Of a DNA stretch of 64,000 nt, positions 3,227 to 64,000 are shown in pieces. The notes under the pieces were generated by a model. The model saw only the letters and a program-made list of their open reading frames with translations. It was not told where the DNA came from and made no database searches. The stretch's first letter is position 1. Every line of letters begins with the position of its first letter. The DNA is taken from sequence record NC_100331.1; one strand, written 5' to 3'. The position numbers and the translations under genes were made by a program. The stretch is from Escherichia phage vB_EcoS_HASG4.

Positions 3227-3264
3227 CCGTACTCAAGACCAATGATAGCATTCTCTTTAAAAAT

Positions 3265-6803: not shown

Positions 6804-6804
6804 A

Positions 6805-6865
6805 AATTTATTTGCATAGTTCAAAAAATTTCTGTATAATAGATTCATAAATTTGAGAGAGGAGT
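6805..6865 (+). promoter_or_regulatory. strong early promoter (T5-like family)
   Basis: TTGCAT-N17-TATAAT (6833-6838), TG adjacent, then TTCATAAATTTGAGAGAGGAG leading into the ATG at 6872. Confidence 0.55.
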
Positions 6866-6871
6866 TTAAAT

Positions 6872-7820: not shown

Positions 7821-7835
7821 CTGCAGAAAAATTTC

Positions 7836-7895
7836 AGTTGCTTAATCCTACAATTCTTGATATAATATTCTCATAGTTTGAAAGAACTATTCTGT
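7836..7895 (+). promoter_or_regulatory. strong early promoter (T5-like family)
   Basis: TTGCTT-N17-TGaTATAAT (7861-7866), then TTCTCATAGTTTGAAAG. Confidence 0.5.
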
Positions 7896-7923
7896 TTAAT
7901 TCTTAATTAAGGAAATATAAAAT

Positions 7924-8334
7924 ATGACTACTCCAACTCAGTGGACTGATGAACTGTTCGAAAAAATGTCTTCCGAATATGTTGCTCGTATGGAGCAATT
8001 CCCAGAGGATGAACGTCCGGGTGTTAGCATGGAAATTGTTAGCGAAATTGCCCAGGAAAATGGTGTAACTCCGAACGGTTTTCGTATGAAGCTGACTAAA
8101 GCAGGTTTGTATATTAAGAAAGCTGCTGGTTCTACTTCTAAATCTAGCGCATCTACTGGAGAAAAAGCTTCCGGTGGTTCTCGTACCTCCAAAGCTCAAG
8201 CCCATGCCGATCTTCGTTCAGCATTCTCTGATGCTGGCCTAGCACCAGATTTTCTGGATGATGCAATTATCGACAAACTGACCGGTAAAGCGGCTGCTCA
8301 TCTGGCAGAAGCAATCCGAGCTATCACTAAGTAA
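7924..8334 (+). CDS. hypothetical protein with host-optimal codon usage (probably highly expressed)
   Basis: Intact ORF rich in ggt/tct/gct/cgt/ctg codons, unlike the AT-rich neighbours; Ser/Ala-rich linker. Confidence 0.5.
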   Translation: MTTPTQWTDELFEKMSSEYVARMEQFPEDERPGVSMEIVSEIAQENGVTPNGFRMKLTKAGLYIKKAAGSTSKSSASTGEKASGGSRTSKAQAHADLRSAFSDAGLAPDFLDDAIIDKLTGKAAAHLAEAIRAITK

Positions 8335-8370
8335 TTTTTAGATAAATCCACCAACAAAAGGAACACAGTT

Positions 8371-8667
8371 ATGACCAAAGCTGAAATTATCGCACAATGT
8401 GAAAAATTTGGTGAGTTTTATCTTCATTACGAGAAACTTCGTCAGAAAGGAACCACGTACCTCCAGGGTACAATGGAATTTGATCCAGCCCAAGATAAAT
8501 ATCTGGCTGAACGTATTAAACGTGAACGTATTCGTAAAGCGAAAGATGATGAAATCCTTGTCTTCTCTCGTACTAATGATAGCTTCCGTTTTATTCCTGT
8601 CGAGAAGGTCCGTCGTGTGACTAGCCTCCAATCAGAGTTAGATCGTGCTTCTCCAGTAGGCCGATAA
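8371..8667 (+). CDS. hypothetical protein
   Basis: Intact ORF followed by a terminator; basic region RIKRERIRKAKDDE. Confidence 0.45.
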   Translation: MTKAEIIAQCEKFGEFYLHYEKLRQKGTTYLQGTMEFDPAQDKYLAERIKRERIRKAKDDEILVFSRTNDSFRFIPVEKVRRVTSLQSELDRASPVGR

Positions 8668-8677
8668 GAAACCAATT

Positions 8678-8700
8678 AGCCCCTATATGGGGCTTTTTGT
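8678..8700 (+). terminator. rho-independent terminator
   Basis: AGCCCCTATATGGGGCT followed by TTTTT. Confidence 0.6.
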
Positions 8701-8717
8701 GTATTTGGGATATGTAA

Positions 8718-9026
8718 ATGAGCGAACAGGTAAATCAAAACTATGAAGGACACGTTGATGACCAGTCCATCATACTTTGGGAGAAGGAGGGAGAACAAGT
8801 AAGATTAACAGTATCTGAATTTCGTGGGAATCTATACATGGGTATTCGTTACTGGCTTCTTGATATTAATGATGAATGGTTTCCAACGAAATCTGGCTTC
8901 TCTTTTCCTTACACCCTAGAAACAACATCACAGCTTTTCTATGCGTTTACTCAGATTCTTAGCGAATCTGAGGTTTTACATGAAGTACAGAAACGAGCTG
9001 AAGAACTCAAAGCCAAGAATGCCTAG
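8718..9026 (+). CDS. putative PC4/YdbC-like ssDNA-binding protein
   Basis: Pattern RLTVSEFRGNLYMGIRYWLLD...WFPTKSGFSFP resembles the PC4-fold signature; size about 100 aa. Confidence 0.4.
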   Translation: MSEQVNQNYEGHVDDQSIILWEKEGEQVRLTVSEFRGNLYMGIRYWLLDINDEWFPTKSGFSFPYTLETTSQLFYAFTQILSESEVLHEVQKRAEELKAKNA

Positions 9027-9042
9027 TTCTTGGCTTTTTCTT
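9010..9042 (+). terminator. terminator-like hairpin overlapping the stop codon
   Basis: AGCCAAGAA-tgcctag-TTCTTGGCT followed by TTTTTC. Confidence 0.5.
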
Positions 9043-9052
9043 TATAAATGTA

Positions 9053-9110
9053 TTTGCTTTCAACTCAGTTTTGTTATATAATATTTATATAAATTAATGA
9101 GAGGGTTGCA
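9053..9110 (+). promoter_or_regulatory. strong early promoter (T5-like family)
   Basis: TTGCTT-N17-TATAAT (9077-9082), then ATTTATATAAATTAATGAGAGGG. Confidence 0.5.
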
Positions 9111-9112
9111 AA

Positions 9113-9385
9113 GTGAAAAAGATAAATATAAGTACACTTAAACCTTTTCCATATATCGGACAGCCTCTCATACTCATGTGGGAGGAAAAGATTAATGGGG
9201 AAAAGTATACTAAAACTAGAATTGGATATAAACTGATTTCACTTTATTACGAAAAAGAAGTATTAATAGCTGAAATATACTCTCCATTATCGGGCAGGCT
9301 AGTAAAAACTACATATTTGCATCTTTGCAAAAATTATACGTGGCACGGATCTACCAGACAACCCACGTACTATGAGGCAGAATAA
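9113..9385 (+). CDS. hypothetical protein
   Basis: ORF with GTG start right after the promoter/SD; no motif. Confidence 0.3.
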   Translation: MKKINISTLKPFPYIGQPLILMWEEKINGEKYTKTRIGYKLISLYYEKEVLIAEIYSPLSGRLVKTTYLHLCKNYTWHGSTRQPTYYEAE

Positions 9386-10357
9386 ATGACCAATGTAAAA
9401 GAATTTATTAAACGCTGTCAAGAAGCATATTATCAGGGTATGTCTTTAATCTCTGATGAGGAGTATGATTGCCTGGTAAAACGCTTCCCGTTAGAAGAAG
9501 AGATCGGGCCTAAGGGCGATATTCCACATCTGTATCGTATGTATTCTTTACAGAAAGTTTATTATAATCGTGGAGATAAACCCCCATTTAACCCATTAGG
9601 TCAGGTAGAAACTGACAAGTTAGATGGTTGTGCGATTTCTCTATTATATATTAATGGCGAATTTGTTCAAGCACTAACTCGTGGTAATGGTATTCTAGGG
9701 AATGATGTCACAAGCAACGTAAGACTGCTGAATATCCCTAAAAAGATTTCCCAAAAAGTACCAACTCAAATCACTGGTGAAGTTCTAATTACAAAAGAAG
9801 TAGAAAATAAACGTAACTTTGCCTCTGGTGCTATTAACCTCAAAGATAGCGATGATTTCGTACAACGTATCGGGGAAGGCGGTTTAATCTTCGTTGCATA
9901 CGGTATCCAGTGTTCTGCCGAATCTGTAGGTATTACAGAATCGTATTTAAAAGATATGCTTTGGCTAGAGAATGAGAACTTCTTAACAGTTGTTAATGTG
10001 CGTTCCTTCTTTAAATGGATTCCGACTGACGGTAAAGTTGTTCGTATTAATGACAACAACAAATTCTTCCGTGAGGGCTGGACAAATAAATTCCCTCGTG
10101 GAGCATTCGCCATTAAAGAGGATGAAGAAGGCGAAATTACAACTCTTACTAAAGTTGAGTGGCAGGTAGGGGCTTCTGGTAAAGTAACTCCAGTTGGCTA
10201 TTTCGAACCGGTAATTATTGATGATGCTACAATTGTTAAAGCGACTCTTAATAACGTTGATTATATTAACTCTCTCGATCTAGAGATCGGTTGCCAGATT
10301 CGAGTGATTCGTGCTGGTGGTGTAATCCCGTGTATAGTAGAGCGAGTATACGATTAA
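9386..10357 (+). CDS. NAD-dependent DNA ligase, N-terminal (adenylation/OB) subunit
   Basis: ETDKLDGCAIS carries the KxDG adenylation-lysine motif of LigA-type ligases; length fits the nucleotidyltransferase plus OB domains only. Confidence 0.75.
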   Translation: MTNVKEFIKRCQEAYYQGMSLISDEEYDCLVKRFPLEEEIGPKGDIPHLYRMYSLQKVYYNRGDKPPFNPLGQVETDKLDGCAISLLYINGEFVQALTRGNGILGNDVTSNVRLLNIPKKISQKVPTQITGEVLITKEVENKRNFASGAINLKDSDDFVQRIGEGGLIFVAYGIQCSAESVGITESYLKDMLWLENENFLTVVNVRSFFKWIPTDGKVVRINDNNKFFREGWTNKFPRGAFAIKEDEEGEITTLTKVEWQVGASGKVTPVGYFEPVIIDDATIVKATLNNVDYINSLDLEIGCQIRVIRAGGVIPCIVERVYD

Positions 10358-12150: not shown

Positions 12151-12181
12151 ATTTAGAAGGCACGAAAGCGTGCAAAGGAGA

Positions 12182-20317: not shown

Positions 20318-21295
20318 ATGAGAATATTATTTAGTGCTGATCATCATATCAAACTAGGACAAGATAAAGTTCCAAAGGAATGGCAGAAGCGTCGTTTCCT
20401 GATGCTAGGAGAACGGTTAAATGATATATTCCATAATCATAACTGTGATCTTCATATTGCTGGTGGTGATATTCTTGATGTTGCCGACCCGTCGTCAGAA
20501 GAAATAGAACTGCTTGAACAGTTCATGTCAAGACTTGACCACCCAGGTAAAATCTTTACTGGAAATCATGAAATGTTAACTAAAACGATTTCATGTCTAT
20601 ATCATTATGCAGGAGTTATTAATAAGGTAACGAGTGGTAAGTGGGAAGTAATTACCAAACCATATCGTTCCCCTGAATTTGATATTGTTCCGTATGATGA
20701 GATCCATAAATCCAAATGGAAACCGTCTGAATCAAAACTATGTTTCACGCATGTTCGTGGTGAAATCCCTCCACATGTAAAACCAGAAATTGATCTAACT
20801 AAGTATAACTGTTATGATACTGTAATTGCTGGCGATTTACATTCTTATACTAATAGCCAGACTATCGGATCTACTAGACTTCTCTACCCAGGGTCTCCAT
20901 TAACTACAACGTTCCATAGAGAACGCACAAAAGGTACAAATGGTTGCTTTATCGTTGATACCGACACATTAAAAGTAGAATGGATTGAACTAGGTGATTT
21001 ACCACAACTGATTCGTAAAACAATCGGAGCCGGTGAAGAGATGGAACCTAGTGATTATGATCGTGTAGTCTATGAAGTTACTGGTGACGTTGTTCAATTA
21101 AAGTCTATCAAAGACTCTGATTTATTAGATAAGAAGATTAACCATCGAGTTACTAAAGACGCTAAGTTAAATCTTGTTGATCTTGATATGTTAGGTGAAC
21201 TTGAACTTTACTTCCGTGAAGTCGAGAAGCTATCTCAAGGCGACATTGATAGAATCTTGGCTAGAGCTGCGAAATATGTCAAAGATTACAATTAA
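20318..21295 (+). CDS. SbcD/Mre11-like metallophosphoesterase nuclease subunit
   Basis: Calcineurin-like motifs DHH (FSADHHI), GD (AGGDILD), GNHE (FTGNHEM), GDLHS. Confidence 0.8.
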   Translation: MRILFSADHHIKLGQDKVPKEWQKRRFLMLGERLNDIFHNHNCDLHIAGGDILDVADPSSEEIELLEQFMSRLDHPGKIFTGNHEMLTKTISCLYHYAGVINKVTSGKWEVITKPYRSPEFDIVPYDEIHKSKWKPSESKLCFTHVRGEIPPHVKPEIDLTKYNCYDTVIAGDLHSYTNSQTIGSTRLLYPGSPLTTTFHRERTKGTNGCFIVDTDTLKVEWIELGDLPQLIRKTIGAGEEMEPSDYDRVVYEVTGDVVQLKSIKDSDLLDKKINHRVTKDAKLNLVDLDMLGELELYFREVEKLSQGDIDRILARAAKYVKDYN

Positions 21296-23114
21296 GACAC
21301 TAAAATTTAGTAACGTTATGTCTTACGGTAAGGACATCGTAATTCATTTCGATAAGAATCCAGTTACTCAACTAATTGGTGGCAATGGGCTAGGGAAATC
21401 CACCATCGCTACTGTTATCGAGGAATTGTTTTATAACAAGAACTCACGTGGTATTAAGAAGGATGCTCTATTCTCTTGGAATGCCCCTAAGAAAGAATAT
21501 GATATGCACGCTTATTTCTCGAAAGATGATGATGAGTATGAGCTGCATAAAGTAGTTAAGTCAACTGCTAAAGTAACGTTGATTAAGAATGGGGAAGATA
21601 TTAGTGGACATACGGCAACCCAAACATACAAGATGATTGAAGAGATTATGGGTGGTGACTTTCAAACATTCACCAAACTGATTTATCAATCAGTGGGTTC
21701 CAACCTAGATTTTCTAAAAGCAACAGATGCAACACGTAAGGCTTTTCTTGTTAATTTGTTCAATCAAGAACAATACAAAGAAATGTCGGAAACTGTTAAG
21801 GCTGACCGTAAAGAAATAGCAAATACCTTAAATAATTTGCAGGGCCAAATGGCTGTAATTACGAAAATTCTTAATGGAAAAAATAATCTAGGAACTTTGC
21901 AGGAACCTGTAGAAATACCGGAGTTTGATGAAGAGCCATTAGCACAAGAACTTACTGAATCGAAAATTAAGGCGGCATTAGCCAAGTCTCAAGAGGCTAA
22001 TATTACTAAGTTGCGTAATTTGGACAAAGCTGTACAAGTTGCCGAACAATCTTTCGAACCTTTCAAAAATTTGCCCGCGCCCACCGACCAAAATGAAGAG
22101 ATCTCAAGTGTTACACGTGACCTAACGATTGTGACCTCACGTGCGAGCGAAGTTAAGAAACGTTATCAGAAGTTCAAGCAAGAGGCTTCAAATACTGAAT
22201 GCCCTACTTGCGGTACTCATCTGGATACAACTGCTGCTCAAAAAGCAATGGATATGGCTAGAATAGAATATGATCCTTTGTTCAAAGAGAAGCAATCTCT
22301 TGAAGCTAAGCTAGAACAGTTGAAGAAAGAACAACTTGAGTACGTTGCGTATACTAGAGCAAAGGATGCTTTGGATAAAGCAGTGGTAGCTAGAGACGAG
22401 TTCAAAAATTCAATGAGTGATGCTTCTTTTGAAGAACTCAATGTGCAAATCCTACAGGTGCAAATCCGACAATTAGAACAGGAAATCGCTGATGGCCGCT
22501 CTAAGGTTGCAATTGCTAAAGAGCATAATGCAAATGTCGAATTAGCCAATGCAAAATATAAAGCGAAACTAGAACAGATTGAGAAAGCTGAGGCAGAAAT
22601 GTCTGAGATTACTTCCAAACTGGATGAGGTATCAGAAGCTGTTGCTGATCTCGATATTCTGATTGCTGCTTTGAAAAATCTGGTGGGATATAAACTAGAG
22701 CATAGTGTGAAAGTATTTGAAGAACTAATTAATAAATACCTTTCTATTATGACTGGTGGTAAATTTGCACTTGGATTTGAACTTGATGAAACAAAATTAC
22801 AAGTAGTAATCTTCAATGATGGAAACCGTACCAGTATGGAGAATTGCTCTACTGGTCAGCAAAGTCGAATCAACTTAGCAACTCTGTTAGCTATTCGAAT
22901 GCTACTAACATCTATTAGTAAAGTTAATATTAATCTTCTATTCCTTGATGAAGTAATTAGCTTTATTGATACAAAAGGACTTGATACTCTAGTTGAATTA
23001 TTAAATGAGGAAGAAAGCCTAAATTCTATCATTGTTTCTCACGGGCATACGCATCCATTAGCCCATAAGATTACTGTTAAAAAAGATGCAGAAGGATTTT
23101 CCTACTTAGAATAA
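21276..23114 (+). CDS. SbcC/Rad50-like ATPase subunit
   Basis: Walker A GGNGLGKST; long coiled coil with a CPTCG zinc hook; D-loop/Walker B LLFLDEVISFID. Start set to the ATG at 21276, overlapping the upstream gene by 20 nt. Confidence 0.8.
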   Translation: MSKITIKTLKFSNVMSYGKDIVIHFDKNPVTQLIGGNGLGKSTIATVIEELFYNKNSRGIKKDALFSWNAPKKEYDMHAYFSKDDDEYELHKVVKSTAKVTLIKNGEDISGHTATQTYKMIEEIMGGDFQTFTKLIYQSVGSNLDFLKATDATRKAFLVNLFNQEQYKEMSETVKADRKEIANTLNNLQGQMAVITKILNGKNNLGTLQEPVEIPEFDEEPLAQELTESKIKAALAKSQEANITKLRNLDKAVQVAEQSFEPFKNLPAPTDQNEEISSVTRDLTIVTSRASEVKKRYQKFKQEASNTECPTCGTHLDTTAAQKAMDMARIEYDPLFKEKQSLEAKLEQLKKEQLEYVAYTRAKDALDKAVVARDEFKNSMSDASFEELNVQILQVQIRQLEQEIADGRSKVAIAKEHNANVELANAKYKAKLEQIEKAEAEMSEITSKLDEVSEAVADLDILIAALKNLVGYKLEHSVKVFEELINKYLSIMTGGKFALGFELDETKLQVVIFNDGNRTSMENCSTGQQSRINLATLLAIRMLLTSISKVNINLLFLDEVISFIDTKGLDTLVELLNEEESLNSIIVSHGHTHPLAHKITVKKDAEGFSYLE

Positions 23115-53693: not shown

Positions 53694-53858
53694 TTGGGAA
53701 ATCTCGAAATTTCATAAGATTACACATGGAGGTGTGCTCACTGCCTCCGGCGGAAATACTTAGTCTGCTAACCGCCACCCTCCGTTACTATTACCATGCT
53801 AACTGTTTCACCCTGCAACCATTTTAATTGCAAGGTGAAACAATTTCAACTTTAATTG

Positions 53859-54593
53859 TTAGGCAACTTTTAATTTCTCAATATATTGTTGCGGGCTGCA
53901 ACTATATTCTGCGCGTTCTTCCTCGGTCATACTTTCCCAACATAATTGCAGGCGGTCGGCTAGAAATTGATAATCATTATCATCCTCAAGAGATTCATCA
54001 ATAAAGGTTTCACCTATCAATGTAACCCCAATCGATAGAATATCGTTAATAGCTTGCGCGTCCAGCGTTTTAAATCCGTATGATGCCGCCGCTGATAGTA
54101 CGCCTTTATGATCATCAATCATCGTAAAATCAGCGTTAGGATATAACTGTTTAAATAGCTCAAAATAATGGCTTTTATAAATAGCGTCTTTACTGTGGTA
54201 TATTTCGCTAACTTTATCAGCTTCAAAATATTTGTGTAGTGTATCGCGGGAAAACACGCGGATATTGCTTTTATCACGACCGCGCAAGCCTTGTTTGCGC
54301 AAGAAATAATAATCCGACTTGCTCATCAATCGAGCGGTGCAAATAATGTTTAACGTGTTAACGTCATTCATGCACTGGCGCATATATGTAACAAGCGGCA
54401 ATAGTGTATCTTGCATTATTAAATCATGTTTGCAGGCTTCATTTTTATACTTATTTAAATCTAAATTGCCCTCACTATCAAAGCAAGGCGCTACACGATG
54501 GAAAGAGTTAATGATAGTGCCATCCAGATCCCAAATCATGACGCGGGAAATATGTGGGAAGCTGCGGGAAATATTCATAATAGCTTTATTCAT
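53859..54593 (-). CDS. dmp: HAD-family 5'-deoxyribonucleotidase (dmp-like)
   Basis: N-terminal MIWDLDGTIINS carries HAD motif I DxDGT; 244 aa, the size I recall for T5 Dmp. Confidence 0.6.
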   Translation of the reverse strand: MNKAIMNISRSFPHISRVMIWDLDGTIINSFHRVAPCFDSEGNLDLNKYKNEACKHDLIMQDTLLPLVTYMRQCMNDVNTLNIICTARLMSKSDYYFLRKQGLRGRDKSNIRVFSRDTLHKYFEADKVSEIYHSKDAIYKSHYFELFKQLYPNADFTMIDDHKGVLSAAASYGFKTLDAQAINDILSIGVTLIGETFIDESLEDDNDYQFLADRLQLCWESMTEEERAEYSCSPQQYIEKLKVA

Positions 54594-54672
54594 TTGTTAC
54601 GTTCTCCATTAAAGGGATTAGATTAATTCAGCATTACCCGCTATTTATAAGCGGGTAATAATAAATTAACTA

Positions 54673-55068
54673 TTAAAGACCATAAGCCAACGCATCAGCG
54701 ATAAAACTAACATCCTCACCGGATACGCTGGAACGAATCCCGGCACAAGTATATACCTTTGCGCTGATCAATTGATCATCGAGGCAAGCGGGGCAAGGCG
54801 CAACCACTGCGAAAGCTAAACCGGATTTTACCGCGTCAATAATAATTGTTTCCTGCTTCATCGTGTCAACATAAACACCTTTTGCTTTAATATGGCTGGT
54901 TAGTTTACCTTGCATATATGCAAACGTTGTAACTTGCATTGCATCATTGAAATCTAACAATTCATCAATAACGTGCCCCGCCTCGACGTGGTAACGTTCA
55001 CCATTAGAATAAACCAGAACAATGGAAGACTGAGCGCGGTCAAATGGAATGCGATTAGATTTAGCCAT
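54673..55068 (-). CDS. hypothetical protein
   Basis: Intact ORF with the conserved leader upstream; contains HVE and PCPAC but with non-canonical spacing. Confidence 0.4.
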   Translation of the reverse strand: MAKSNRIPFDRAQSSIVLVYSNGERYHVEAGHVIDELLDFNDAMQVTTFAYMQGKLTSHIKAKGVYVDTMKQETIIIDAVKSGLAFAVVAPCPACLDDQLISAKVYTCAGIRSSVSGEDVSFIADALAYGL

Positions 55069-55105
55069 GTTTATAACTCCAGTTAGTTTAATAAGGGGGT
55101 TTAAT

Positions 55106-55363
55106 TTACTTGATAATAATCTGCATTTGATATGGCGTTAATTCACCATTTACGGGTAAATTATTATCACTCAACCACTCATAAAAAGCGTCATCATCGT
55201 CAAAGGGAACAATATCATTATCACGATAATCGACCGTAATAATCCCATCTGTATTAGTTTTGGCGGCTAGGATAGGTCCGAAGCTGTAAACTTTATCGGA
55301 TTCCATTTCATCCGGTGAAATAAATGCTTTTTCGTCCAGCGTTTTGGGTAATGTAACTTTCAT
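55106..55363 (-). CDS. hypothetical acidic protein
   Basis: 85-aa ORF, Asp-rich. Confidence 0.35.
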   Translation of the reverse strand: MKVTLPKTLDEKAFISPDEMESDKVYSFGPILAAKTNTDGIITVDYRDNDIVPFDDDDAFYEWLSDNNLPVNGELTPYQMQIIIK

Positions 55364-55420
55364 TCTAATTTAGCTCCTGTAATAGCGGCTATATTTCAAG
55401 CCGCTAGGGGAATAATTTAA

Positions 55421-57085
55421 TTACGCGAAAAATTTACCATTCTTAAAGTCAATCAAGGTGCGCTGACCGTTTGCATAGGTAATAACATGCGTTTGTGTCC
55501 AGCTTGACGCGCCAACGTTATAACCCATGTCCAGACTACCAGACACGCCAGCGGTGTATACGCCGCCGTAAATACTGGCGGTATGAGTGTGCCCCGTGTT
55601 TAATTTGCCCAATTTCTTAAACTGTTTCGGATTGCCACGGCTGCCGTTTATGCCGTTGTGACCGTGTACGCCGCATTCAATGCCTGCAATCTTGAAAGAT
55701 TGATCAGTGGTCAGAAAAATAGCGTTAAACTCACAACCTGCAACCTTACGCAGCGCATAATCTAGCACGTTGAAAGTATCGTCTTTTTCTGCAATAGCTC
55801 CATAAATCGCAGCATTAAGGCGGTGATATAGTTCCGCGTTTGCTGGGTCGTCTTTAATGTTAGCATTACGATCATCCAGCCAACGGGATAGCGCCAAATC
55901 GTGGTTTGATTCAACAATGATCGTTTGAGCAAAATCGCGCTCCATCGATTCCAGCACGCGCCCGGTATCGATAAGATCATCCAGAACTTTATCACGTCCG
56001 GCGGCGTATTGTTTCGCTAGGAATACACCGGAGGCACGATTATGATGATTGCGTGATGTAAAATCATGCACGTCATGGACGAATTGATATTTTGGCTTGA
56101 GAATATCAAGCAAGCTATTTTCCCCAGCCCATGATGCAACGGCGCAAGCGTCATCCAATTTTTCGGCGTGGACGTCGCCATATTGTAAACCTAAAACGTG
56201 CCCCGATGTTTCATAGCATCCGGCGGGAGTAGCGCAAACATTCAGATCATAAAATACGCCGCTTTCATCCATCGTTTCAAGCTGGCGAACAAAAAATTCT
56301 CCGTCTTCGTCGAACTCGACAATAAGCGCACCGAAGTTATGCAGCGCCTCGGCCTTTTGTCCTGCTTTCTGCTGGATGTAGTTTTTTAACGTTGCCGTTC
56401 CGGTTGAATACATACGGCGCACAATTTCACCTTTTAAAGCTGGCACGCTTTCAGCGGTAATTTTAGCCGCTCCGATTGCCAGACCTTCGAGATTAAGCGC
56501 GGTTGCAGTTTCAGCGAATCCAGAAAGCGGATAATCTGCGGTGGGCAAAACATTAATTTCAGCCATGAAAGCAAAACGGCGATTGTTTAAAAATACGTTT
56601 TTGCTGCAAATATATTTATCAAACGCAGAATCATATTTGATTCCGTCTGCCCCTTCCCCATTTTGAAAACCGTTTTTATTATAAATATACTTAGAAACAA
56701 GCAAATCAGCGCCAATAAATTGGGCATATTGTTCAAGCGAGGCTAAAAAGTTTTTATGCGGGAAAGTATTATTCTGAATCGATGTAATAATAAAGCGTTT
56801 GCCTTGTTTTACTTCCCATTGCTCCACCGTGCTAGAAATAACTCCAGCGGCTTCAGGGCGGTCATCGTTTTTTATGGCTTTTGCTGTTTTTGCCGCTTTT
56901 GGTTTCGCTGGTTTATTTGCTTCCAACCAGTCGCAGATAGCGGTCGAGTGTTTTGTAGTATCGTATACCGCTTTTGATATATCGTCGCAGACTTCCAGTT
57001 TAGTAGCGCGCAGACGTTTACCATAGAAATTAAAGTCAGCGGCAAGGTTGAGAATCTGGGCTTGTTTTTCTGCGGAAATAATCAT
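55421..57085 (-). CDS. A1: A1-like pre-early protein, calcineurin-like metallophosphoesterase
   Basis: Phosphoesterase-type motifs GDVH, SNHD, GHTHT; 554 aa, close to what I recall for T5 A1; conserved leader upstream. Confidence 0.6.
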   Translation of the reverse strand: MIISAEKQAQILNLAADFNFYGKRLRATKLEVCDDISKAVYDTTKHSTAICDWLEANKPAKPKAAKTAKAIKNDDRPEAAGVISSTVEQWEVKQGKRFIITSIQNNTFPHKNFLASLEQYAQFIGADLLVSKYIYNKNGFQNGEGADGIKYDSAFDKYICSKNVFLNNRRFAFMAEINVLPTADYPLSGFAETATALNLEGLAIGAAKITAESVPALKGEIVRRMYSTGTATLKNYIQQKAGQKAEALHNFGALIVEFDEDGEFFVRQLETMDESGVFYDLNVCATPAGCYETSGHVLGLQYGDVHAEKLDDACAVASWAGENSLLDILKPKYQFVHDVHDFTSRNHHNRASGVFLAKQYAAGRDKVLDDLIDTGRVLESMERDFAQTIIVESNHDLALSRWLDDRNANIKDDPANAELYHRLNAAIYGAIAEKDDTFNVLDYALRKVAGCEFNAIFLTTDQSFKIAGIECGVHGHNGINGSRGNPKQFKKLGKLNTGHTHTASIYGGVYTAGVSGSLDMGYNVGASSWTQTHVITYANGQRTLIDFKNGKFFA

Positions 57086-57183
57086 GGTAATAAAACTCCA
57101 TTAAAGGGATTAAAAAACGTTTGTTATTGGCAAATATTGCCAAATATAACGCCTATTATTTGAGGCGTTATAATTTGCAATAT

Positions 57184-57399
57184 TTAACTAATCGGCATCA
57201 GGCTAGAACTAACACCACAAGCAACGGCGGCAATAAAACAAATAAGACCTAAACGCTTTGCTAACTTAGATTTACGTTTAAAATAATATGAATCCAGATC
57301 ATTTTGGAAATAAGCAAACAATAACGAGGCCGCTACAATAAATAATCCTAGAATGAGGGATTCAGTAGGGTAAAAGATCATTTTAATAACTCCAGTCAA
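57184..57399 (-). CDS. small membrane protein (two hydrophobic segments)
   Basis: 71-aa ORF between the A2-like and A1-like genes. Confidence 0.35.
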   Translation of the reverse strand: MTGVIKMIFYPTESLILGLFIVAASLLFAYFQNDLDSYYFKRKSKLAKRLGLICFIAAVACGVSSSLMPIS

Positions 57400-57437
57400 A
57401 GGAAATTATAGTGGGGAGTATTCCCCACTAATTAAAT

Positions 57438-57845
57438 TTATTCACCTGCGGCCTGTTTTACTTCATCGGCAACGCCCAATAGTTGCGCCACGGCGTCCAA
57501 CGTTTCTAATTTTGCGCTTTCCAGTGATGCCAGATCGTCAACGTCTTTGATAATACCGGAATCGATGGCATGTTTTGCAATAACGCGCACATAATGCGCT
57601 TTGCGGATAGAACTGCCGCCGCCAACCTTGCGAGGTTTATCGCTTTTCTGATACGCTTTCGCGCTGGTCAATTTTGAGCGAACGGACACGGGAGAAGCCG
57701 CACCTACTGCTTTCGCGATCTCTTTCAAGCCGTCGCTATTTGCGAAATCTAAACCGTTTTCATTGATTAGCTGCTGATACATGGTAACAGCCTGCTGGGT
57801 GTTTTCTTCATTCCAAGAAAATTTTACGGTTTTAACGTTAGTCAT
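57438..57845 (-). CDS. A2: A2-like pre-early protein
   Basis: 135-aa ORF immediately upstream of the A1-like gene; size and position match T5 A2 as I recall it. Confidence 0.45.
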   Translation of the reverse strand: MTNVKTVKFSWNEENTQQAVTMYQQLINENGLDFANSDGLKEIAKAVGAASPVSVRSKLTSAKAYQKSDKPRKVGGGSSIRKAHYVRVIAKHAIDSGIIKDVDDLASLESAKLETLDAVAQLLGVADEVKQAAGE

Positions 57846-57943
57846 GGTAAAAACTCCTATTAGTTTAATTTAAGGGATAAGATTAACATAATGTTAATCG
57901 TTATATACCCCGAACTACTGGGGTATATAAAGTTAACACTAAA

Positions 57944-58195
57944 TTACAAAACAGCTTCCCATTTTTCGTTGCGTTGAACAACCTTTACAACATCGCCGGA
58001 TTTAACGCGAACGCTAAAAACGGTTTTGCCGTTGTTACTGCGTTCCGTTTCAGCGTATACCGCGTCGATTGTATCGAACGGCATAAGCGCCGCACCTTTA
58101 ATGCGTTCGGCCTTTCCGGTTAACTCATCCGTTTTAGTAACGAAAGGAATAAAAACGGATTGACCAATTTTTGGCGCGGTAATAACGTTTTGCAT
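57944..58195 (-). CDS. hypothetical protein
   Basis: 83-aa ORF with the conserved leader and AGGAG SD. Confidence 0.4.
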   Translation of the reverse strand: MQNVITAPKIGQSVFIPFVTKTDELTGKAERIKGAALMPFDTIDAVYAETERSNNGKTVFSVRVKSGDVVKVVQRNEKWEAVL

Positions 58196-58422
58196 AGTAT
58201 AAACTCCTAGTTATTTGGGGATTATTCCGCATTACCTGCTAGAAGGTAGCAGGTAATAAGTAACAATCCGCTCGCCAGTTTAACCAATTTAAAGAACTCC
58301 ACGTAGGCCGCTATATCCCAGTTAGGGGGCGGGATGCATTATGGTAAGCACCGACCGTCAAATTTTATCAAGTTATCGCTCTTATCGAACTGAGTACATC
58401 TTAAAACCTATCGGCTAGGTTG

Positions 58423-58626
58423 TCAAACGGTTTTTTGCAATTTTTTATGATTTTCTTTCAAGTCAATCATAATATTTCGCCAGATCATTTCTAGACCTTG
58501 CTGGCGACCTCTCTTGTACTGCGTGAATCGGTATTTTACCGATCTTTGCGCTACTGTCAACAAATTTTTTGTTTTGCTATCTAGTGCCTTAATAGGCTTG
58601 CCAGTGATCAATAAAGTTTGTTTCAT
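58423..58626 (-). CDS. hypothetical small basic protein (uncertain)
   Basis: 67-aa ORF inside the large intergenic region; weak SD. Confidence 0.2.
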   Translation of the reverse strand: MKQTLLITGKPIKALDSKTKNLLTVAQRSVKYRFTQYKRGRQQGLEMIWRNIMIDLKENHKKLQKTV

Positions 58627-59256
58627 ATCGTCGATTCCTTATAATAGATAAGTTTACCGCCGATAGGCTTTAAGATGTACCCAATTTTTAAAGAGCGTGG
58701 CGGTAAACTTCCCGCCGTGTAGTTCGTCATTGCCGCCCTACGTGATAAATAATAGGGGATTCCCGAAAATGGCGCAACCTTATTTTTGTAAAGAAACGTA
58801 AAGACAAAATTCACCGGACGGCGTGCGGTGACGGCCTAAAATTAAAAGAAACGGGCGCGCGAATACCACAAAACAAAGCAAATAGGCAAGTAATTTTTTC
58901 ATTTATATTTGCTTTCCCCTACTTGACAAAATCTAAAAAGCTCGTGGTAGCGATAAACGGCTTATCCCCTTATGATGGGATGGCTAAAAACTTTATTGCG
59001 TTCTAGGGCGTTTTAGGCGGCTCATTTTCGATTTAACAAATATCTAACAAAAGCAAAATTGAAAAATAGTTGAAAAAGGTCTTGACTTTTAAAAATCAAG
59101 GGGCATTGCATTAATTTATAAAATAAATTAATTGACTTTTATTTGTTGTTGTGTATTAGAAAGATAGCAAACTAATAATTACTAGAATGATAATCATGCT
59201 GGTGGATTGTAACGGCTTAAATTATTAGCAGACTACTAATCCCGGAAAATCTCATT

Positions 59257-59310
59257 AGCCAACTAACTGTTTCATAAGTTATAATATACATATAAATTAA
59301 TGAGAAATAA
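59257..59310 (+). promoter_or_regulatory. promoter-like element of the T5 family (weak -35)
   Basis: GTTATAAT with TATAAT at 59280-59285, then ATACATATAAATTAATGAGAAA. Confidence 0.35.
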
Positions 59311-59419
59311 TAATTATAAGAAAACGTAACCGATAGGAATAATAACTATAAAAATAATCACTACTATAATAATAACTATAAGAAACTATCGGCCTAAGTG
59401 AGAACCACTATCATTTAAG

Positions 59420-59440
59420 TTATCCACAAAGTTATCCACA
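59420..59440 (+). promoter_or_regulatory. two perfect DnaA boxes (TTATCCACA) in direct repeat
   Basis: TTATCCACA at 59420-59428 and 59432-59440, just downstream of an AT-rich repeat tract. Confidence 0.6.
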
Positions 59441-59794
59441 GCACTTTTTGACTTGACACGATATGCGGCGATACAAGGACTTTTGCTCAGACTTACCCAC
59501 AGGTTATCCTACTGTATAAATATACAAGGTAAAAAGATAGTGTTAACAACTGCAATCAATTTTAAGCGGCCTAAATCGCTTTCTAACGAGCAAAACGCTG
59601 TAGGGTAATATTAAAGTAAAGCCTCAACGTGTCGGCCTGGTGGCTTCGCCGTGTTTTGCTCTTTACTATACCGCTGCGCGGTTAGCATAAAAATAAGCGT
59701 TAGGCAAGGAAAATAAAAAGGTAAAATAATATTTGCCCCTAGAAAGAAAATACCTTTATCATTCACTCACCGATTAACGAGGGAGGCCGAACAA

Positions 59795-60787
59795 ATGAGG
59801 CTTTATAAACCAGATAACGCAACCGTCTTAAAAGGTGCATTGCGCAACCTGCTGGATGGTAGCAGAACAACCAGCATTAAACATTTTGTTTTCAATATTG
59901 AAACACTTCATCGTAATTTTCTTGATGATTACGATGCTTATAATATGAATAGTTTTCTACCGTTATATAATCAAGGGGCAACGCTTGTTTTATATAATCA
60001 GGAATCTCACTTGCTTACTAGTCGAGGGCCAGATACTGATTTTATTATAGTGAAAGGCAGTACAGTAAAAGCCTATGATGCGGGGGCGGGCTTAGAAGTT
60101 TTCACGATAGAAAATTATGAGCCTTATGATAAGGATCTTTATGACGTAGAAAATTTTCTCGATTCATTTTGGCGTTATTTATCAATTGGGTGGAATCGGT
60201 CGGATTATGACGGGTATCGTTTTGCGGCTGTAATGGCTTTTGATGATAACGGTAATTTTTTGTTACCGTCGGAATTATACCCGTATGTATATAATGATTT
60301 AATAGAGGAGGCTGGTTTTACTTTCTGGAAAGATGAAGATCAGCCTATTGACAATATAGAAAACCATGCTGTAAATTCTAACACTCAAAGCGTTAACACT
60401 CAAACTACTGAAAACAAAGGAAAAAATACCATGACCAAGATCGCTAATATCGTTGCCGCTAATAAATCCGCTGTTGTAAATGCTGCAAAACTGGAAGCGG
60501 GTAAAATTGCACTGACTCAAATCACGAAAGTAGCGGCTAAAAAAGCGCCGTTTATGATTAAAGGTTATATTGATACGCCGATTGGTCGTGTAGTGATCGC
60601 TAACCTATTGAGTGTAGCGGTTGACCAGTACGCCCCAACTAACCAAAAGGCAAAAGCGGTAGCAGGCGCGGCTATGGAAGCGGCAATGCTGGAAATGGTG
60701 CAAAGTTTTAACATCGCTGAAATGATTGATGAAATGGTAAAAGGTATCGATATTTCTACTTTTACCACTAACACCGAAAGCGAGTAA
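59795..60787 (+). CDS. hypothetical protein
   Basis: 330-aa ORF with GAGG SD; first gene of a rightward cluster. Confidence 0.45.
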   Translation: MRLYKPDNATVLKGALRNLLDGSRTTSIKHFVFNIETLHRNFLDDYDAYNMNSFLPLYNQGATLVLYNQESHLLTSRGPDTDFIIVKGSTVKAYDAGAGLEVFTIENYEPYDKDLYDVENFLDSFWRYLSIGWNRSDYDGYRFAAVMAFDDNGNFLLPSELYPYVYNDLIEEAGFTFWKDEDQPIDNIENHAVNSNTQSVNTQTTENKGKNTMTKIANIVAANKSAVVNAAKLEAGKIALTQITKVAAKKAPFMIKGYIDTPIGRVVIANLLSVAVDQYAPTNQKAKAVAGAAMEAAMLEMVQSFNIAEMIDEMVKGIDISTFTTNTESE

Positions 60788-60852
60788 TAATATTTAGCGG
60801 GGATTATTTCCCCGCTTTACTATTCCCTTGTTAACTAATAGGAGGCTAACTA

Positions 60853-61347
60853 ATGGCTGAGGAAAAATACGGCTTCTCGCTAGGGGAAGTGAGCACGGCT
60901 AAACACGATATGATCATTTTAGTTGATTGTCATACTGGCTATTGCGGGGAAGGGAACACCGAAGAATATTTTGTTCCTGCTGGTACGGATCTGGACGCTT
61001 TAGCTCACGAAATGGCTATGGATAATGCTTCTCGTTTTGGCAGCGATGGCTATGAAGACGAGGATACTGGCGAATGGTATGAAAATGAAAACGTATACGC
61101 AAGTCTTTATCATTATCAGTTAAGTAAATCCGGCACATATGTAAATGGCGGCGATCCTATTAATTCCGTTGTGAAATTAATTATTAAATATGGTGGCGTC
61201 GAGATAATTGATAACAAAGCGGTAATATATGCAAACCGATTAAAACAGCTTGTTTATATTCCTGATAATACCCGATGGGAGGAATACGCTGTTTTGCATG
61301 ACGAATTGAAACGATGTTTCAATATTGAAGCCCTACAAGTAGTCTAA
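60853..61347 (+). CDS. hypothetical acidic protein
   Basis: 164-aa ORF with AGGAGG SD; Asp/Glu-rich. Confidence 0.45.
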   Translation: MAEEKYGFSLGEVSTAKHDMIILVDCHTGYCGEGNTEEYFVPAGTDLDALAHEMAMDNASRFGSDGYEDEDTGEWYENENVYASLYHYQLSKSGTYVNGGDPINSVVKLIIKYGGVEIIDNKAVIYANRLKQLVYIPDNTRWEEYAVLHDELKRCFNIEALQVV

Positions 61348-61452
61348 TGTAAAGTTTTGTAAAGGTCGCCTTTTATGGTGGCCTTTTTTGTTATAATGCC
61401 TTTACACCAAAACGGTGGATTGAAAATTTTCCCAAAAATTTGGAGGCTTAAA

Positions 61453-61683
61453 ATGGTTGCATACTCTTCTGCTAGTCATCTGTTTACCGCGCAAGGCTGG
61501 GTATCTAATCGCGTCATTATTCATGAAATGGTGCAGGAGTTCGGCATTGCTAAAACGTATAATACCATTCAGGAACTATATAACGCCGATAAAATCGATC
61601 AGCAAACGGCTGGCTTTTTGCTGGATACCCTGAAAGCTGAACATTGCACTAAAAAGCAAGCTGCAAAAATTGTCTTAATGTAA
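61453..61683 (+). CDS. hypothetical protein
   Basis: Internal ATG at 61453 with GGAGG SD; the track's 61375 start lacks an SD. Confidence 0.4.
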   Translation: MVAYSSASHLFTAQGWVSNRVIIHEMVQEFGIAKTYNTIQELYNADKIDQQTAGFLLDTLKAEHCTKKQAAKIVLM

Positions 61684-61736
61684 TTAATAACGGGGGGGGG
61701 GTATTATATCCCCCGATAACTAGGAGGCTATCACAA

Positions 61737-61886
61737 ATGGTTATTTTTCGAGCTATTTTAGCGGGTATCTTGGGCGCTATTTTATCGTTATTTGCAATAG
61801 CTTTCGGTGTTCACGCCGTTATTATCGGCGCGGGTATCGCCGCATTTTCTTATCTGCTGGGCTGCATGACTAGTAAAGGAGAATAA
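61737..61886 (+). CDS. small membrane protein (49 aa)
   Basis: TAGGAGG SD 9 nt upstream; two hydrophobic segments; preceded by a G10 tract. Confidence 0.4.
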   Translation: MVIFRAILAGILGAILSLFAIAFGVHAVIIGAGIAAFSYLLGCMTSKGE

Positions 61887-61888
61887 AA

Positions 61889-62101
61889 ATGATTCGTAAC
61901 GTTTCCCTTGCACGTTCGAAAGGCTTTAGGCTGGTGGACGTTAACACGTTCGAGCGTGAAGATTGTAAAATCGAATATGTAGCACGTAACAAAAATGCCT
62001 TTCGTGTTACTGAGAAAAAATTCGACAAGCGCGGCAACGTGATCGCTGAAACAGTTAAACATTTTGCCACCTTTTATGCTGCGTTTCGTGGGGTATTATA
62101 A
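61889..62101 (+). CDS. hypothetical protein
   Basis: 70-aa ORF with GGAG SD, immediately after the previous stop. Confidence 0.4.
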   Translation: MIRNVSLARSKGFRLVDVNTFEREDCKIEYVARNKNAFRVTEKKFDKRGNVIAETVKHFATFYAAFRGVL

Positions 62102-62102
62102 A

Positions 62103-62447
62103 ATGGTTATTTATGAAGGCAACCGCTTTGTTACTAATTGCCGTCCGGCATTACTAGCAAACTACTTAAATCAGCTTTCCCCAGCTTATAAGGGCGTTAT
62201 TAATATTTATGAGGGCAAGGCGCATTATAAAATCAATGCGGTCGTTGCCCGTGAACTAGCGTTTCAATTTTTGACCTTTGCATCTTGTGACGTTCAGGTC
62301 ATGGGTGAGGCATTAATTGCAGAAAATGAAGATGATTTTATTAATATTTTCCGCAAGATATGCACCGAGCGCCTGATCATGAAAGGCGCTTATATTCAAT
62401 CCACTGCGGATAGTATTGAAACAGCGTTTCGAAAGGTGGCACAATGA
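62103..62447 (+). CDS. hypothetical protein
   Basis: ATG at 62103 directly after the upstream stop; 114 aa. Confidence 0.4.
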   Translation: MVIYEGNRFVTNCRPALLANYLNQLSPAYKGVINIYEGKAHYKINAVVARELAFQFLTFASCDVQVMGEALIAENEDDFINIFRKICTERLIMKGAYIQSTADSIETAFRKVAQ

Positions 62448-62602
62448 AAAAGTTTTTAATAGCTGGTATGTTTCCTTTGTTGCCTTATGTAATTTGCTGG
62501 GCTTTATATGCTCATGGTGCTAGTGTTCCCGGTGTGGCTTCATTTGGTGTATCGGCTGGTTTTCTAACCGGACTATTGGCAAGCGTATATTTACGCAAAT
62601 AA
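62444..62602 (+). CDS. small membrane protein (52 aa)
   Basis: ATG overlapping the upstream stop; two hydrophobic segments. Confidence 0.35.
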   Translation: MKKFLIAGMFPLLPYVICWALYAHGASVPGVASFGVSAGFLTGLLASVYLRK

Positions 62603-62620
62603 TTAATAACGGGAGTTATT

Positions 62621-62824
62621 ATGAGCAATAAAATTATTGTAACCAAAATCAGTACAATGGTTGATGTTTTTTACGTGCCCGATACGCCGGAGAATCGGCA
62701 AGCGGTTGAGCGTGGCGAGTATGATAAAGTGATTTATGATCACGATGGTTATTATCAGCATTTGGCGGATTCCTACGGGGAGGAGGAAAAAATCACGCAT
62801 CGACTACCGGAGGAGGATTTATGA
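62621..62824 (+). CDS. hypothetical protein
   Basis: 67-aa ORF with GGGAG SD. Confidence 0.4.
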   Translation: MSNKIIVTKISTMVDVFYVPDTPENRQAVERGEYDKVIYDHDGYYQHLADSYGEEEKITHRLPEEDL

Positions 62825-62925
62825 AACGATGGTTTAATCACTGGTATAAACGGTTTTTAGTACGCCGTCGCAAGTCTAGGCATCAAGATGAGTGGAGGGA
62901 GTGGGCAAAGCGTAACGGTTGCCCA
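62821..62925 (+). CDS. hypothetical small basic protein (uncertain)
   Basis: 34-aa Arg/Trp-rich ORF overlapping the previous stop. Confidence 0.2.
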
Positions 62926-62975
62926 CTACTATAATAATCACGGGGCGCAACTAGTAAGAAGTGCCCCCAATTCTC

Positions 62976-62996
62976 AAATGAGAATCATTCTCATTT
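62976..62996. repeat. perfect 21-bp palindrome AAATGAGAATCATTCTCATTT
   Basis: Read directly; the two 10-bp arms are exact reverse complements around a central C. Confidence 0.8.
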
Positions 62997-63190
62997 GACC
63001 GCGCCCGCGATGATTAGCCTGCTAATGGTTAGGGTGTTACGTGTCGCCTTGTGTGATCGTTAGCGTGCTAACTAATTTTCAAGCCTCCTCCAATTTTCCC
63101 CTTGTTTTAGTATCCCCGCCAAAATTAAACGCGTTAGAATGCGATTCAGGACGTTTTAAGCCTATATTAGAATTATTCACTGCATAGGAA

Positions 63191-63210
63191 TACTGTATAT
63201 TTATACAGTA
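63191..63210. promoter_or_regulatory. LexA-box-like palindrome TACTGTATATTTATACAGTA
   Basis: Fits CTGT-N8-ACAG with an all-AT spacer; one mismatch to TACTGTATATATATACAGTA. Confidence 0.5.
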
Positions 63211-63222
63211 GAATAACCTGGG

Positions 63223-63301
63223 GATAAGTCTGTGGATAACGCTTCAAAATGGCTAGGGTTCTGTCAAGTCAAATCGTGCTGTTGATAAGTCTGTGGATAA
63301 C
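63223..63301. repeat. exact 18-bp direct repeat GATAAGTCTGTGGATAAC x2, each with a DnaA box (TGTGGATAA)
   Basis: Copies at 63223-63240 and 63284-63301. Confidence 0.75.
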
Positions 63302-63332
63302 TTAAATAACAGTGTTTCTCACTTCCGTTTTT

Positions 63333-63500
63333 AAATGCGAATCATTATCATTCGCATTTCACTAGCTAACCGATAATCACTCCACTTTTTAAATGAGAAT
63401 CATTTCACTTCTTGAATAGTTCTCATTCCCTTTCTTAAATGCAAATCATTATCATTCGCATTTCACTTTTTAAATGAGATTGATTCTCATTATCATTCGC
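63333..63500. repeat. cluster of palindromes built from AAATG(C/A)GAAT half-sites
   Basis: AAATGCGAATCATTATCATTCGCATTT (63333-63359), AAATGAGAA...TTCTCATT (63391-63427), AAATGCAAATCATTATCATTCGCATTT (63437-63463), AAATGAGATTGATTCTCATT (63472-63491). Confidence 0.75.
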
Positions 63501-63533
63501 ATTCAGGCGAGCAAGGCAATTGCCCTGCGCTTT

Positions 63534-63757
63534 TGTGCAAATCCGACATTTGCCCCCATGGATTACGCGTGGGCATGTATGTGCGAATCCGACAATTTTT
63601 GGTAGTGTGCAAATCCGACCCGAAAAATTTTTATAGTGTGCGAATCCGACAATGAATTTTCCTAAAAACTCCAGCAATCACGAACTGCGTTCGAATCCTG
63701 TGGAATTAGCTAGAGTATGTGCAAATCCGACATGTGTTGAGCTGTGCGAATCCGACA
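63534..63757. repeat. six direct 15-bp iterons TGTGC(G/A)AATCCGAC(A/C)
   Basis: Copies start at 63534, 63580, 63606, 63637, 63718, 63743; spacings 46, 26, 31, 81, 25 bp; a degenerate copy (CGTTCGAATCC) near 63690. Confidence 0.8.
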
Positions 63758-64000
63758 AGATTTTTGTGACTTCGATTGGAGGGTGTGTGATTGTATAGGT
63801 TTGAGGAGAAGATGAGAGAGCGAGAGAAATTTTGGGACTAGAAGGATGTGGGCGCAAGATTGGTGCGGAGCACCTGATTTGCGGGGATTTTGGGGGAGAG
63901 TTGAGATAATTTGGGAAGATTTGAGATAGGTGCAGAAAAAGTAAAATTTTATTAGCTAAATGGAGCAAAATAGCTTGACAAGTGAAAATTCTTGTGGCTC

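Follow-up and report, generated by a model that had tools for sequence, protein, structure and literature searches.

The 15-bp direct repeats at the right end of Escherichia phage vB_EcoS_HASG4: T5-type DRD repeats and a probable protein-binding array

In this work, we analysed a stretch of 64,000 bp from Escherichia phage vB_EcoS_HASG4 (NC_100331.1), here called the window, and in particular six direct copies of a 15-bp motif located close to its right end (63534-63757, + strand). By homology, the six 15-mers almost certainly correspond to copies 1-6 of the DRD direct repeats that belong to Repeat Region 3 of T5-type phages. The DRD element has been described since 1987 and the array is not new; what is new are the comparative patterns, namely a conservation that reaches the Vibrio phages, the replacement of the motif in some lineages, the bracketing of the terminal-repeat cut and a loose tracking of the motif by residues of protein A2, which together lead to two or three testable hypotheses. 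The comparisons make it quite probable that the DRDs are a protein-binding array. Their participation in the pause or restart of DNA transfer is a more tentative proposal, to which we give a little less than an even chance.

T5 halts once 8% of its DNA has been injected and then restarts, a behaviour that has been a standing question since the 1960s. The injection stop signal (iss) region is the only known cis element of this two-step transfer, and no other part of it is as repetitive or as motif-like as the DRDs. The subject also has a practical side, as T5-like phages are the object of engineering, are under consideration for therapy and, outside their first-step DNA, resist restriction.

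Identity with the T5 DRD repeats

Judged from alignments, the window covers the last 64 kb on the right of a virulent T5-like phage genome and terminates at its physical right end. Hundreds of T5-like phages match the array region, which is 100% identical to that of Escherichia phage vB_EcoS_EASG3, the closest record, and about 97% identical to T5 (97% over 301 bp). Because the last 12 kb of the window align with the last 12 kb of the EASG3 record, and because the start of the repeat can be placed by homology to T5, we consider that the window ends at the right genome end and that the array is the copy carried by the right terminal repeat, 243-466 bp from the end of this repeat.

A pattern scan of the window revealed six exact matches to TGTGCRAATCCGACM on the + strand, starting at 63534, 63580, 63606, 63637, 63718 and 63743, with start-to-start distances of 46, 26, 31, 81 and 25 bp. 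When up to two mismatches were allowed, the whole 64 kb contained eight matches against 0.18 expected, and none of the 100 dinucleotide-preserving shuffles that provided the chance expectation reached eight; the two matches beyond the array form a tandem pair at 22442-22471. Only short open reading frames (ORFs) cross the array; they are unconserved among relatives, whose annotations of this region are mutually inconsistent. A previous sequence-only reading had described six near-identical 15-mers in about 225 bp of non-coding DNA, and both the exact scan and the ORF comparison bear this description out. The copies are as follows:

63534..63548, + strand: DRD copy 1, TGTGCAAATCCGACA, exact match, homologous to T5 9752-9766
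63580..63594, + strand: DRD copy 2, TGTGCGAATCCGACA, exact match, 46-bp spacing as in T5
63606..63620, + strand: DRD copy 3, TGTGCAAATCCGACC, exact match, T5 homology
63637..63651, + strand: DRD copy 4, TGTGCGAATCCGACA, exact match, T5 homology
63718..63732, + strand: DRD copy 5, TGTGCAAATCCGACA, exact match, T5 homology
63743..63757, + strand: DRD copy 6, TGTGCGAATCCGACA, last within the terminal repeat, ending 243 bp before the repeat and genome end

In the T5 record, positions 1-10219 are the left terminal repeat, 9140-10149 are annotated as "injection stop signal (iss)" and a major single-strand nick is placed at 9748/9749. Six T5 copies are found inside iss (9752, 9798, 9824, 9855, 9936 and 9961), with the same spacings as in the window, and three more just beyond the terminal repeat (10305, 10340 and 10477), giving nine in total. 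These are the published "series of nine DRD repeats" (Wang 2005; Davison, preprint 10.1101/866236, after Heusterspreute 1987), and the other components of Repeat Region 3 are a DnaA-box-bearing IRD'-spacer-IRC' element and two DRE repeats (10.1101/866236). Copies 7-9 are missing at the genome end studied here because they are located outside the terminal repeat, where the window ends.

Motif, copy order and spacing are alike in both phages, the A/G variants differ from T5 at three of the six copies, and nothing essential is different. The T5 neighbours of the DRDs (DnaA-box inverted repeats, DRE repeats, palindromes, the major nick and the end of the terminal repeat) are likewise matched in the window, and the array has the T5-type location, that is, in non-coding DNA at the inner end of the long terminal repeat and downstream of dmp, A1 and A2. 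The coordinates of AY587007, used in the preprint 10.1101/866236, are offset by 80 bp from those of NC_005859 in the iss region:

Terminal-repeat end: AY587007 10139, NC_005859 10219
Repeat Region 3 right end: AY587007 10409, NC_005859 10489; the ninth copy ends at 10491
Nominal end of first-step-transfer DNA (7.9% of the genome; shear point): AY587007 9618, NC_005859 9698, window about 63480

The nominal end of the first-step-transfer DNA is found about 54 bp to the left of copy 1. An injection-stop-type site had been among the suggestions made from the sequence, and it agrees with the position of the array, since the homologous T5 stretch lies inside the iss feature; in the literature, the iss role of this T5 region is a positional assignment only.

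Other identities of the repeats were considered and rejected. As already noticed from their irregular spacing, the 15-bp repeats, with gaps of 10-66 bp, do not form an array of clustered regularly interspaced short palindromic repeats (CRISPR), which would have regular repeats of 24-48 bp and unique spacers of similar length. The likeness of the core GCGAATCC to a tRNA T-loop, taken as possibly coincidental, is a likeness only: ARAGORN found no tRNA gene in 62500-64000, and Rfam gave nothing credible at the array and no match near the gathering score, and a tRNA-derived or RNA element was rejected. A promoter or terminator array was rejected, as no enrichment of such signals was present in the array, and so was structure-forming DNA, the single-strand folding of the array being no better than that of shuffles (z = +0.73). 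Sites for CRP, Fis, IHF, XerC/dif, MatP and sigma-54, compared by eye, matched the 15-mer poorly.

Sequence constraint and depth of conservation

The first check called for by the sequence-only reading was a search for the motif in the rest of the genome and in relatives; it showed a motif that is nearly confined to the cluster, kept in relatives and not a common k-mer. In the complete T5 genome (121,750 bp, at most one mismatch), matches were limited to the DRD cluster and its right-repeat copies, to a site at 12153 and to a pair at 78935-78964 in gene D13, all of them on the + strand.

The site at T5 12153-12167 (L002 4654) is an isolated tenth copy, about 1.8 kb past copy 8, within the early gene T5.019 and opposite to its coding strand. 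Its position, which is outside the window, is kept in several T5-like phages (chee24, L001 6027; L044 3823; L111 1637). The D13 pair is also present in the window (22442-22471, + strand) as a tandem of near-perfect DRDs, TGTGCAAATCCTACA GGTGCAAATCCGACA, in a D13/SbcC-like ORF (21195-23114), where it encodes VQILQVQIRQ in a coiled-coil segment and has the orientation of the terminal array; in T5 the 64.8% major nick (78573) is some 360 bp away from the pair. All D13 genes examined in Tequintavirus and Epseptimavirus carry it, and it is absent from My1-like phages. As a candidate second functional site the pair is uninformative, because D13 is 94-99% identical wherever the pair is present and the My1-like phages without it keep the terminal array. 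We treat it as lineage-specific or coincidental.

A paired-motif scan of 2.9 million viral contigs gave matches only in contigs of about 96-123 kb, the genome size of T5-like phages. The same scan of 596 Gb of bacterial and archaeal genomes gave six matches and detected no DRD arrays in enterobacterial or Vibrio chromosomes. Two of the six are mis-binned T5-like fragments, found in metagenome-assembled genomes (MAGs) assigned to Spirochaetia (L151, SABI01000336.1) and Clostridia (L155, RZZU01000077.1); they are 82-86% identical to T5 and represent binning contamination. The other four are dissimilar to T5-like references, three being tandem or palindromic repeats in MAG contigs of higher GC content and the fourth (L152) a low-GC contig with two motif copies.

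Within the arrays, the motif is more constrained than the DNA between the copies. In 39 unique T5 and Epseptimavirus arrays, the mean entropy was 0.31 in motif columns against 0.73 in spacers (Mann-Whitney p = 1e-10), and alignment gaps were mostly found in spacer columns. In Shigella phage SHSML-45 (L044 937-1530) and Salmonella phage NR01 (L111), copy 3 is separated from the copies that follow by an HNH homing endonuclease gene (about 0.6 kb), and one copy has been lost. Because such an insertion inside the array is tolerated, the copies probably act additively and not as one rigid architecture. The proposed protein-binding array is thus supported, indirectly, by 15-mers that stand out as footprints against their spacers, by their single orientation and by a motif nearly unique to the locus.

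The core GTGCAAATCCGAC is kept as far as the Vibrio phages, in the following relatives (A1 identities are to the phage of the window):

Klebsiella phage RCIP0070: A1 74% identical
Enterobacter phage KKP_3711
Pectobacterium phage My1: A1 66% identical
Vibrio phage Cody: A1 31% identical
Vibrio phage JSF12: A1 33% identical

In Vibrio phages, GTGCAAA is the best-kept part of the motif; phage D332 keeps GTGCGAA with a different 3' half, and the metagenomic contig L149 carries GTACWAAWCYGAY. Other relatives have replaced or lost the motif. The T5 motif is absent from Proteus phage 1 (A1 43% identical), whose equivalent non-coding region (L017 2951-3138) has CCAYCATTCTATTAYTC about nine times, and from Aeromonas phage AhSzw-1, whose equivalent non-coding region (L020 3104-3271) has TCTAGCCGTCTAAACA about eight times; Providencia phage PSTCR5 is without the T5 motif as well. 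Perfect DnaA boxes (TTATCCACA) were present in every lineage checked, with two to six per 12-20 kb against about 0.1-0.15 expected by chance, and the Proteus and Aeromonas relatives keep them near their own arrays. Because the DRD-type motif changes between phage genera while the host-read DnaA boxes stay fixed, these comparisons favour a reader of the DRDs that would be encoded by the phage rather than by the host.

Candidate roles of the array

The reading that we prefer, still tentatively and at slightly less than even confidence, is that a phage protein, probably A2, docks at the DRDs to control the pause or restart of DNA transfer. Each 15-mer would be a sequence-specific docking site for a phage DNA-binding protein, most probably the pre-early protein A2 acting with A1. 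Starting about 54 bp past the nominal end of the first step, the DRDs would be the DNA that comes first at the membrane, or immediately outside it, during the pause. The initial pause itself would be set by host-readable parts of iss, such as DnaA boxes and palindromes, and not by the DRD reader.

According to the T5 annotation, A2 is a DNA-binding protein needed with A1 for DNA transfer, and it belongs to a PHROG of DNA-binding proteins; neither a Pfam family nor a solved homologue was found for it. When whole-protein identities of A1, A2, dmp, the small terminase (TerS) and the large terminase (TerL) were compared with the presence of the motif, all five followed the phylogeny and none was discriminated. 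At the residue level, A2 retains VRSKL, YQK and RKxHYVR in every phage that carries the canonical motif (T5, My1, Klebsiella, Enterobacter and Cody). The remaining phages differ as follows:

JSF12: A2 VRGKL, YVK and HYLR; motif variant AAAACCGA
D332: A2 YCK and SYIR; 3' half of the motif altered
Proteus phage 1: A2 VRTKL and HVVF; motif absent, different array
Providencia phage PSTCR5: A2 VRTKL and TLIR; motif absent
Aeromonas phage AhSzw-1: A2 VRQKL and KLVL; motif absent, different array

The N-terminal helix-turn-helix (HTH) helix of TerS varies among phages with an identical motif (SEIAFRDIM in T5, KEVDCRLML in My1, EEPKFREIM in the Klebsiella phage and PVAEVEAQL in Cody), and no residue pattern of TerS was seen to track the motif, which leans against counting the DRDs among terminase sites. 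In these alignments, residues of A2 appear to track the motif loosely and those of the small terminase do not. That A2 is the DRD reader is suggested by this pattern as a possible but doubtful assignment.

Several observations weigh against a docking role for A2 in transfer. The initial pause of T5 transfer occurs without phage protein synthesis, so that A2 cannot cause it. Three of the T5 copies and the isolated tenth are outside the terminal repeat, and a cluster that brackets the cut site fits a role in packaging equally well. The identity of whole A2 proteins follows the phylogeny, and its residue pattern is unclean, as contig L149 has lost HYVR but kept the CYGAY half-site; moreover, the covariation comprises few independent lineages and contrasts. 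The AlphaFold model of A2, made from a single sequence, is all-helical and of low confidence (predicted local distance difference test, pLDDT, 72.6; predicted template modelling score, pTM, 0.39), and it gave no significant fold match, only non-significant matches to three-helix HTH structures. The predicted fold would be compatible with a role as reader and is not evidence for it. Finally, the literature up to 2026 assigns no role to the DRDs and contains no binding experiment.

A narrower version of the A2 reading takes the DRDs as A2 loading sites, possibly composed of two half-sites, GTGCRAA and TCCGAC, read by two helical modules, and as a cis-acting restart element of second-step transfer that co-evolves with A2 across Demerecviridae. 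We regard it as rather unlikely; if true, it would split the "injection stop signal" into a pause module, the DnaA boxes and palindromes, read by the host and a resume module, the DRDs, read by the phage.

The main rival is a packaging or terminus signal. The features of the terminal repeat are the following (a slash marks the cut):

53735..64000, + strand: right terminal repeat, 10,266 bp (dmp, A1, A2 and iss region), left boundary at about 53735 by homology to T5 position 1
53859-54593, - strand: dmp, in the terminal repeat
55421-57085, - strand: A1, in the terminal repeat
57438..57845, - strand: A2, pre-early DNA-binding protein for second-step transfer after the T5 annotation, putative DRD reader
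63975..64000, + strand: right terminal-repeat boundary TTGACAAGTGAAAATTCTTGTGGCTC/, the physical right end, shared with T5, Sw2, Sepoy, EscoHU1, phiR201 and MM-1, at a homologous position in My1

The repeat ends at an identical ...TTGACAAGTGAAAATTCYTGTGGCTC/TAAAAACTCAGG in these six T5-like phages, the termini of Sw2 and Sepoy being PhageTerm determinations, and the end of the window coincides with it. Relative to this cut, the T5-like copies are located at -467, -421, -395, -364, -283 and -258 inside the repeat and at +86, +121 and +259 outside. In My1, of a different subfamily, the repeat ends at the homologous position, GGGGGCAAAA..TTGACAAATGAAAA-N13-/AAAAAC, with six copies inside and three outside, and in Vibrio phage Cody the deposited boundary also splits the cluster, leaving at least five copies within the repeat and two beyond it. 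Repeats clustered at the conserved cut, on both of its sides, are thus found in three subfamilies, Vibrio phages included.

On the packaging reading, which we consider rather improbable although it is the strongest competitor, the DRD cluster would be a recognition array for the small terminase at the right repeat boundary, the concatemer would be cut between copies 6 and 7, and the right end, with copies 1-6, would be packaged first. It is favoured by the bracketing of the conserved cut in T5-like phages, My1 and Cody and by the array being 243 bp from the physical right end. According to the literature the left end is ejected first, from which, on general principle, the right end would be packaged first, and an asymmetry in which only the right cut has DRDs would be consistent with initiation and termination cuts being different. 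However, the left boundary (TTACACATGRA.../) lacks DRDs and shares TT(G)ACAMRTG(A/G)A with the right one, so that DRDs are not needed for cutting and terminus cutting seems to use a signal of its own. The distances of the nearest copies to the cut are also variable (243 and 86 bp for T5, roughly 351 and 246 bp for My1 and roughly 3 and 75 bp for Cody), the HTH helix of TerS is unconserved among phages with identical motifs and has no residues tracking them, and the 0.6-kb homing-endonuclease insertion in the array is tolerated.

The two boundary elements of the window have the same orientation, TTACACATGGAGGTG/ on the left (53720-53735) and TTGACAAGTGAAAA-N12-/ on the right (63975-64000), and both are kept at homologous positions in T5 and in the distant My1. 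The element that they share is a candidate recognition sequence for the terminase cut.

The R-sites of lambda cosB and the hexamer repeats of P1 pac are terminase recognition arrays. Like the DRDs, they consist of short direct repeats clustered within a few hundred bp of the cut that forms a chromosome end, and in P1 pac the repeats are on both sides of the cut as well. They differ in that DRD copies lie 86-467 bp from a cut whose motif is shared with a DRD-free left cut, that the HTH of TerS is unconserved and that terminase binding is, for the DRDs, only putative.

A roadblock made by a host factor is less probable still, and we consider it improbable. Here the DRDs would be weak DnaA boxes or sites for another conserved host protein that, along with the strong DnaA boxes upstream, anchor the entering DNA to the membrane and cause the first-step pause, in an extension of Davison's DnaA model. 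A pause without phage protein synthesis implies a cause that is already present; the reverse complement of the A-variant, ATTTGCACA, matches eight of the nine positions of the relaxed DnaA consensus TTWTNCACA in the orientation of the neighbouring perfect boxes; and in Vibrio phages the conservation of the motif is highest at GTGCAAA. Nevertheless, a scan of the last 12 kb with TTWTNCACA matched only 59420, 59432, 63231 and 63292 and none of the DRDs, G-variants match just seven of the nine positions, and DnaA leaves the strongly conserved 3' half, TCCGAC, unexplained. A spacing of 25-81 bp is, from what is known of oriC, too wide for a DnaA filament. The motif is replaced or lost in Proteus, Providencia and Aeromonas phages while perfect DnaA boxes persist in the first and the last, and host chromosomes gave no paired-motif arrays. 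Compared with the iss DnaA boxes of Davison's tether model, the DRDs share region and orientation and have a 5' half, TGTGCAAAT, one base off the relaxed consensus, but they fail this consensus, carry an additional conserved half-site and change between lineages.

Iterons and a partition site, both named in the sequence-only reading, did not hold. That the repeats are the iterons or the partition centromere of some plasmid-like replicon is very improbable, although 15-bp direct repeats no more than about 300 bp away from DnaA boxes and AT-rich DNA have a superficial likeness to a theta origin. No similarity to any of 72,556 plasmids was found, and the genome is that of a virulent T5-like phage. 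None of the ORFs in 58-64 kb is rep-like, the repeats are irregularly spaced and not helically phased, and neither the ORF list of the window nor the annotation of the T5 repeat and its flanks contains parA/parB-type genes. The repeats of P1 incC/incA and the R6K iterons are same-orientation repeats of 15-22 bp near DnaA boxes and are presumed to be read by one dedicated protein. The DRDs resemble them in orientation, in the proximity of DnaA boxes and in a presumed single protein acting at many sites, but the DRD locus has no initiator gene, plasmid homology, regular phasing or origin evidence. Furthermore, the T5 origins are near the centre of the genome and the replication genes are silent in the first-step phase (Davison, 10.1101/866236).

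An array without function, either a decayed tandem duplication or a tRNA-derived remnant, is scarcely credible: copies 2-4 are embedded in a longer repeat unit of 26-31 bp (repeat family D5), the core is T-loop-like and a degenerate GTTCGAATCC is found at 63689, but the motif is footprinted against the spacers in the 39 arrays and kept across three subfamilies with proteins down to about 31-39% identity, and there is neither a match to a tRNA or RNA family nor unusual folding.

Neighbouring elements of the iss region

To the left of the array, the window contains the following elements:

63218..63301, - strand: two pairs of DnaA or DnaA-like boxes, corresponding to IRD'-spacer-IRC' (repeat family D7; 10.1101/866236), with perfect TTATCCACA at 63231 and 63292
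63316..63503, no strand assigned: DRE repeats and AT-rich, Fur-box-like palindromes (repeat families D1, D3, D6 and I1), between the DnaA boxes and the DRD array
63527..63531, - strand: predicted major single-strand nick site GCGC (63527-63530), context CCCTGCGCTTTTGTGC, with the nick between 63530 and 63531, by T5 homology

The predicted nick is 3 bp to the left of copy 1, and its T5 counterparts are at 9748/9749 and, in the right-repeat copy, at 121279/121280. Two further perfect DnaA boxes (TTATCCACA), 3 bp apart, are found at 59420-59440 (+ strand); they correspond to the IRC-spacer-IRD of Repeat Region 2, the inverted partner of the pairs at 63218-63301.

The AT-rich palindromes of iss, for example AATGAGAATCATTCTC and AATGCGAATCATTATC (62977-63497, and also 53966-53981), are close to the Fur-box core AATGATAATCATTATC. 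With at most three mismatches, this core has 16 matches in the window against 1.9 expected, and 10 of the 16 are within the 520-bp stretch 62977-63497. The T5 receptor FhuA is Fur-regulated. The preprint of Davison (10.1101/866236) gives no description of the iss palindromes as Fur boxes.

Between copy 6 and the genome end (63824-63928), we found G-rich short direct repeats, TTGGGGGAGAGTTGAGATA and TTTGGGAAGATTTGAGATA, together with GAGAAATTTTGGGA twice, which are probably the "DRA" repeats of T5.

The small-terminase gene T5.156 (L006 7934-8416) is labelled "sciB (putative)" in M62847.1 and MT311645.1, sciB being the old genetic locus for the single-chain interruptions of T5. The major nicks at 7.9% and 99.5% of the genome are 3 bp from DRD copy 1, and a link between terminase, nick and DRDs is possible.

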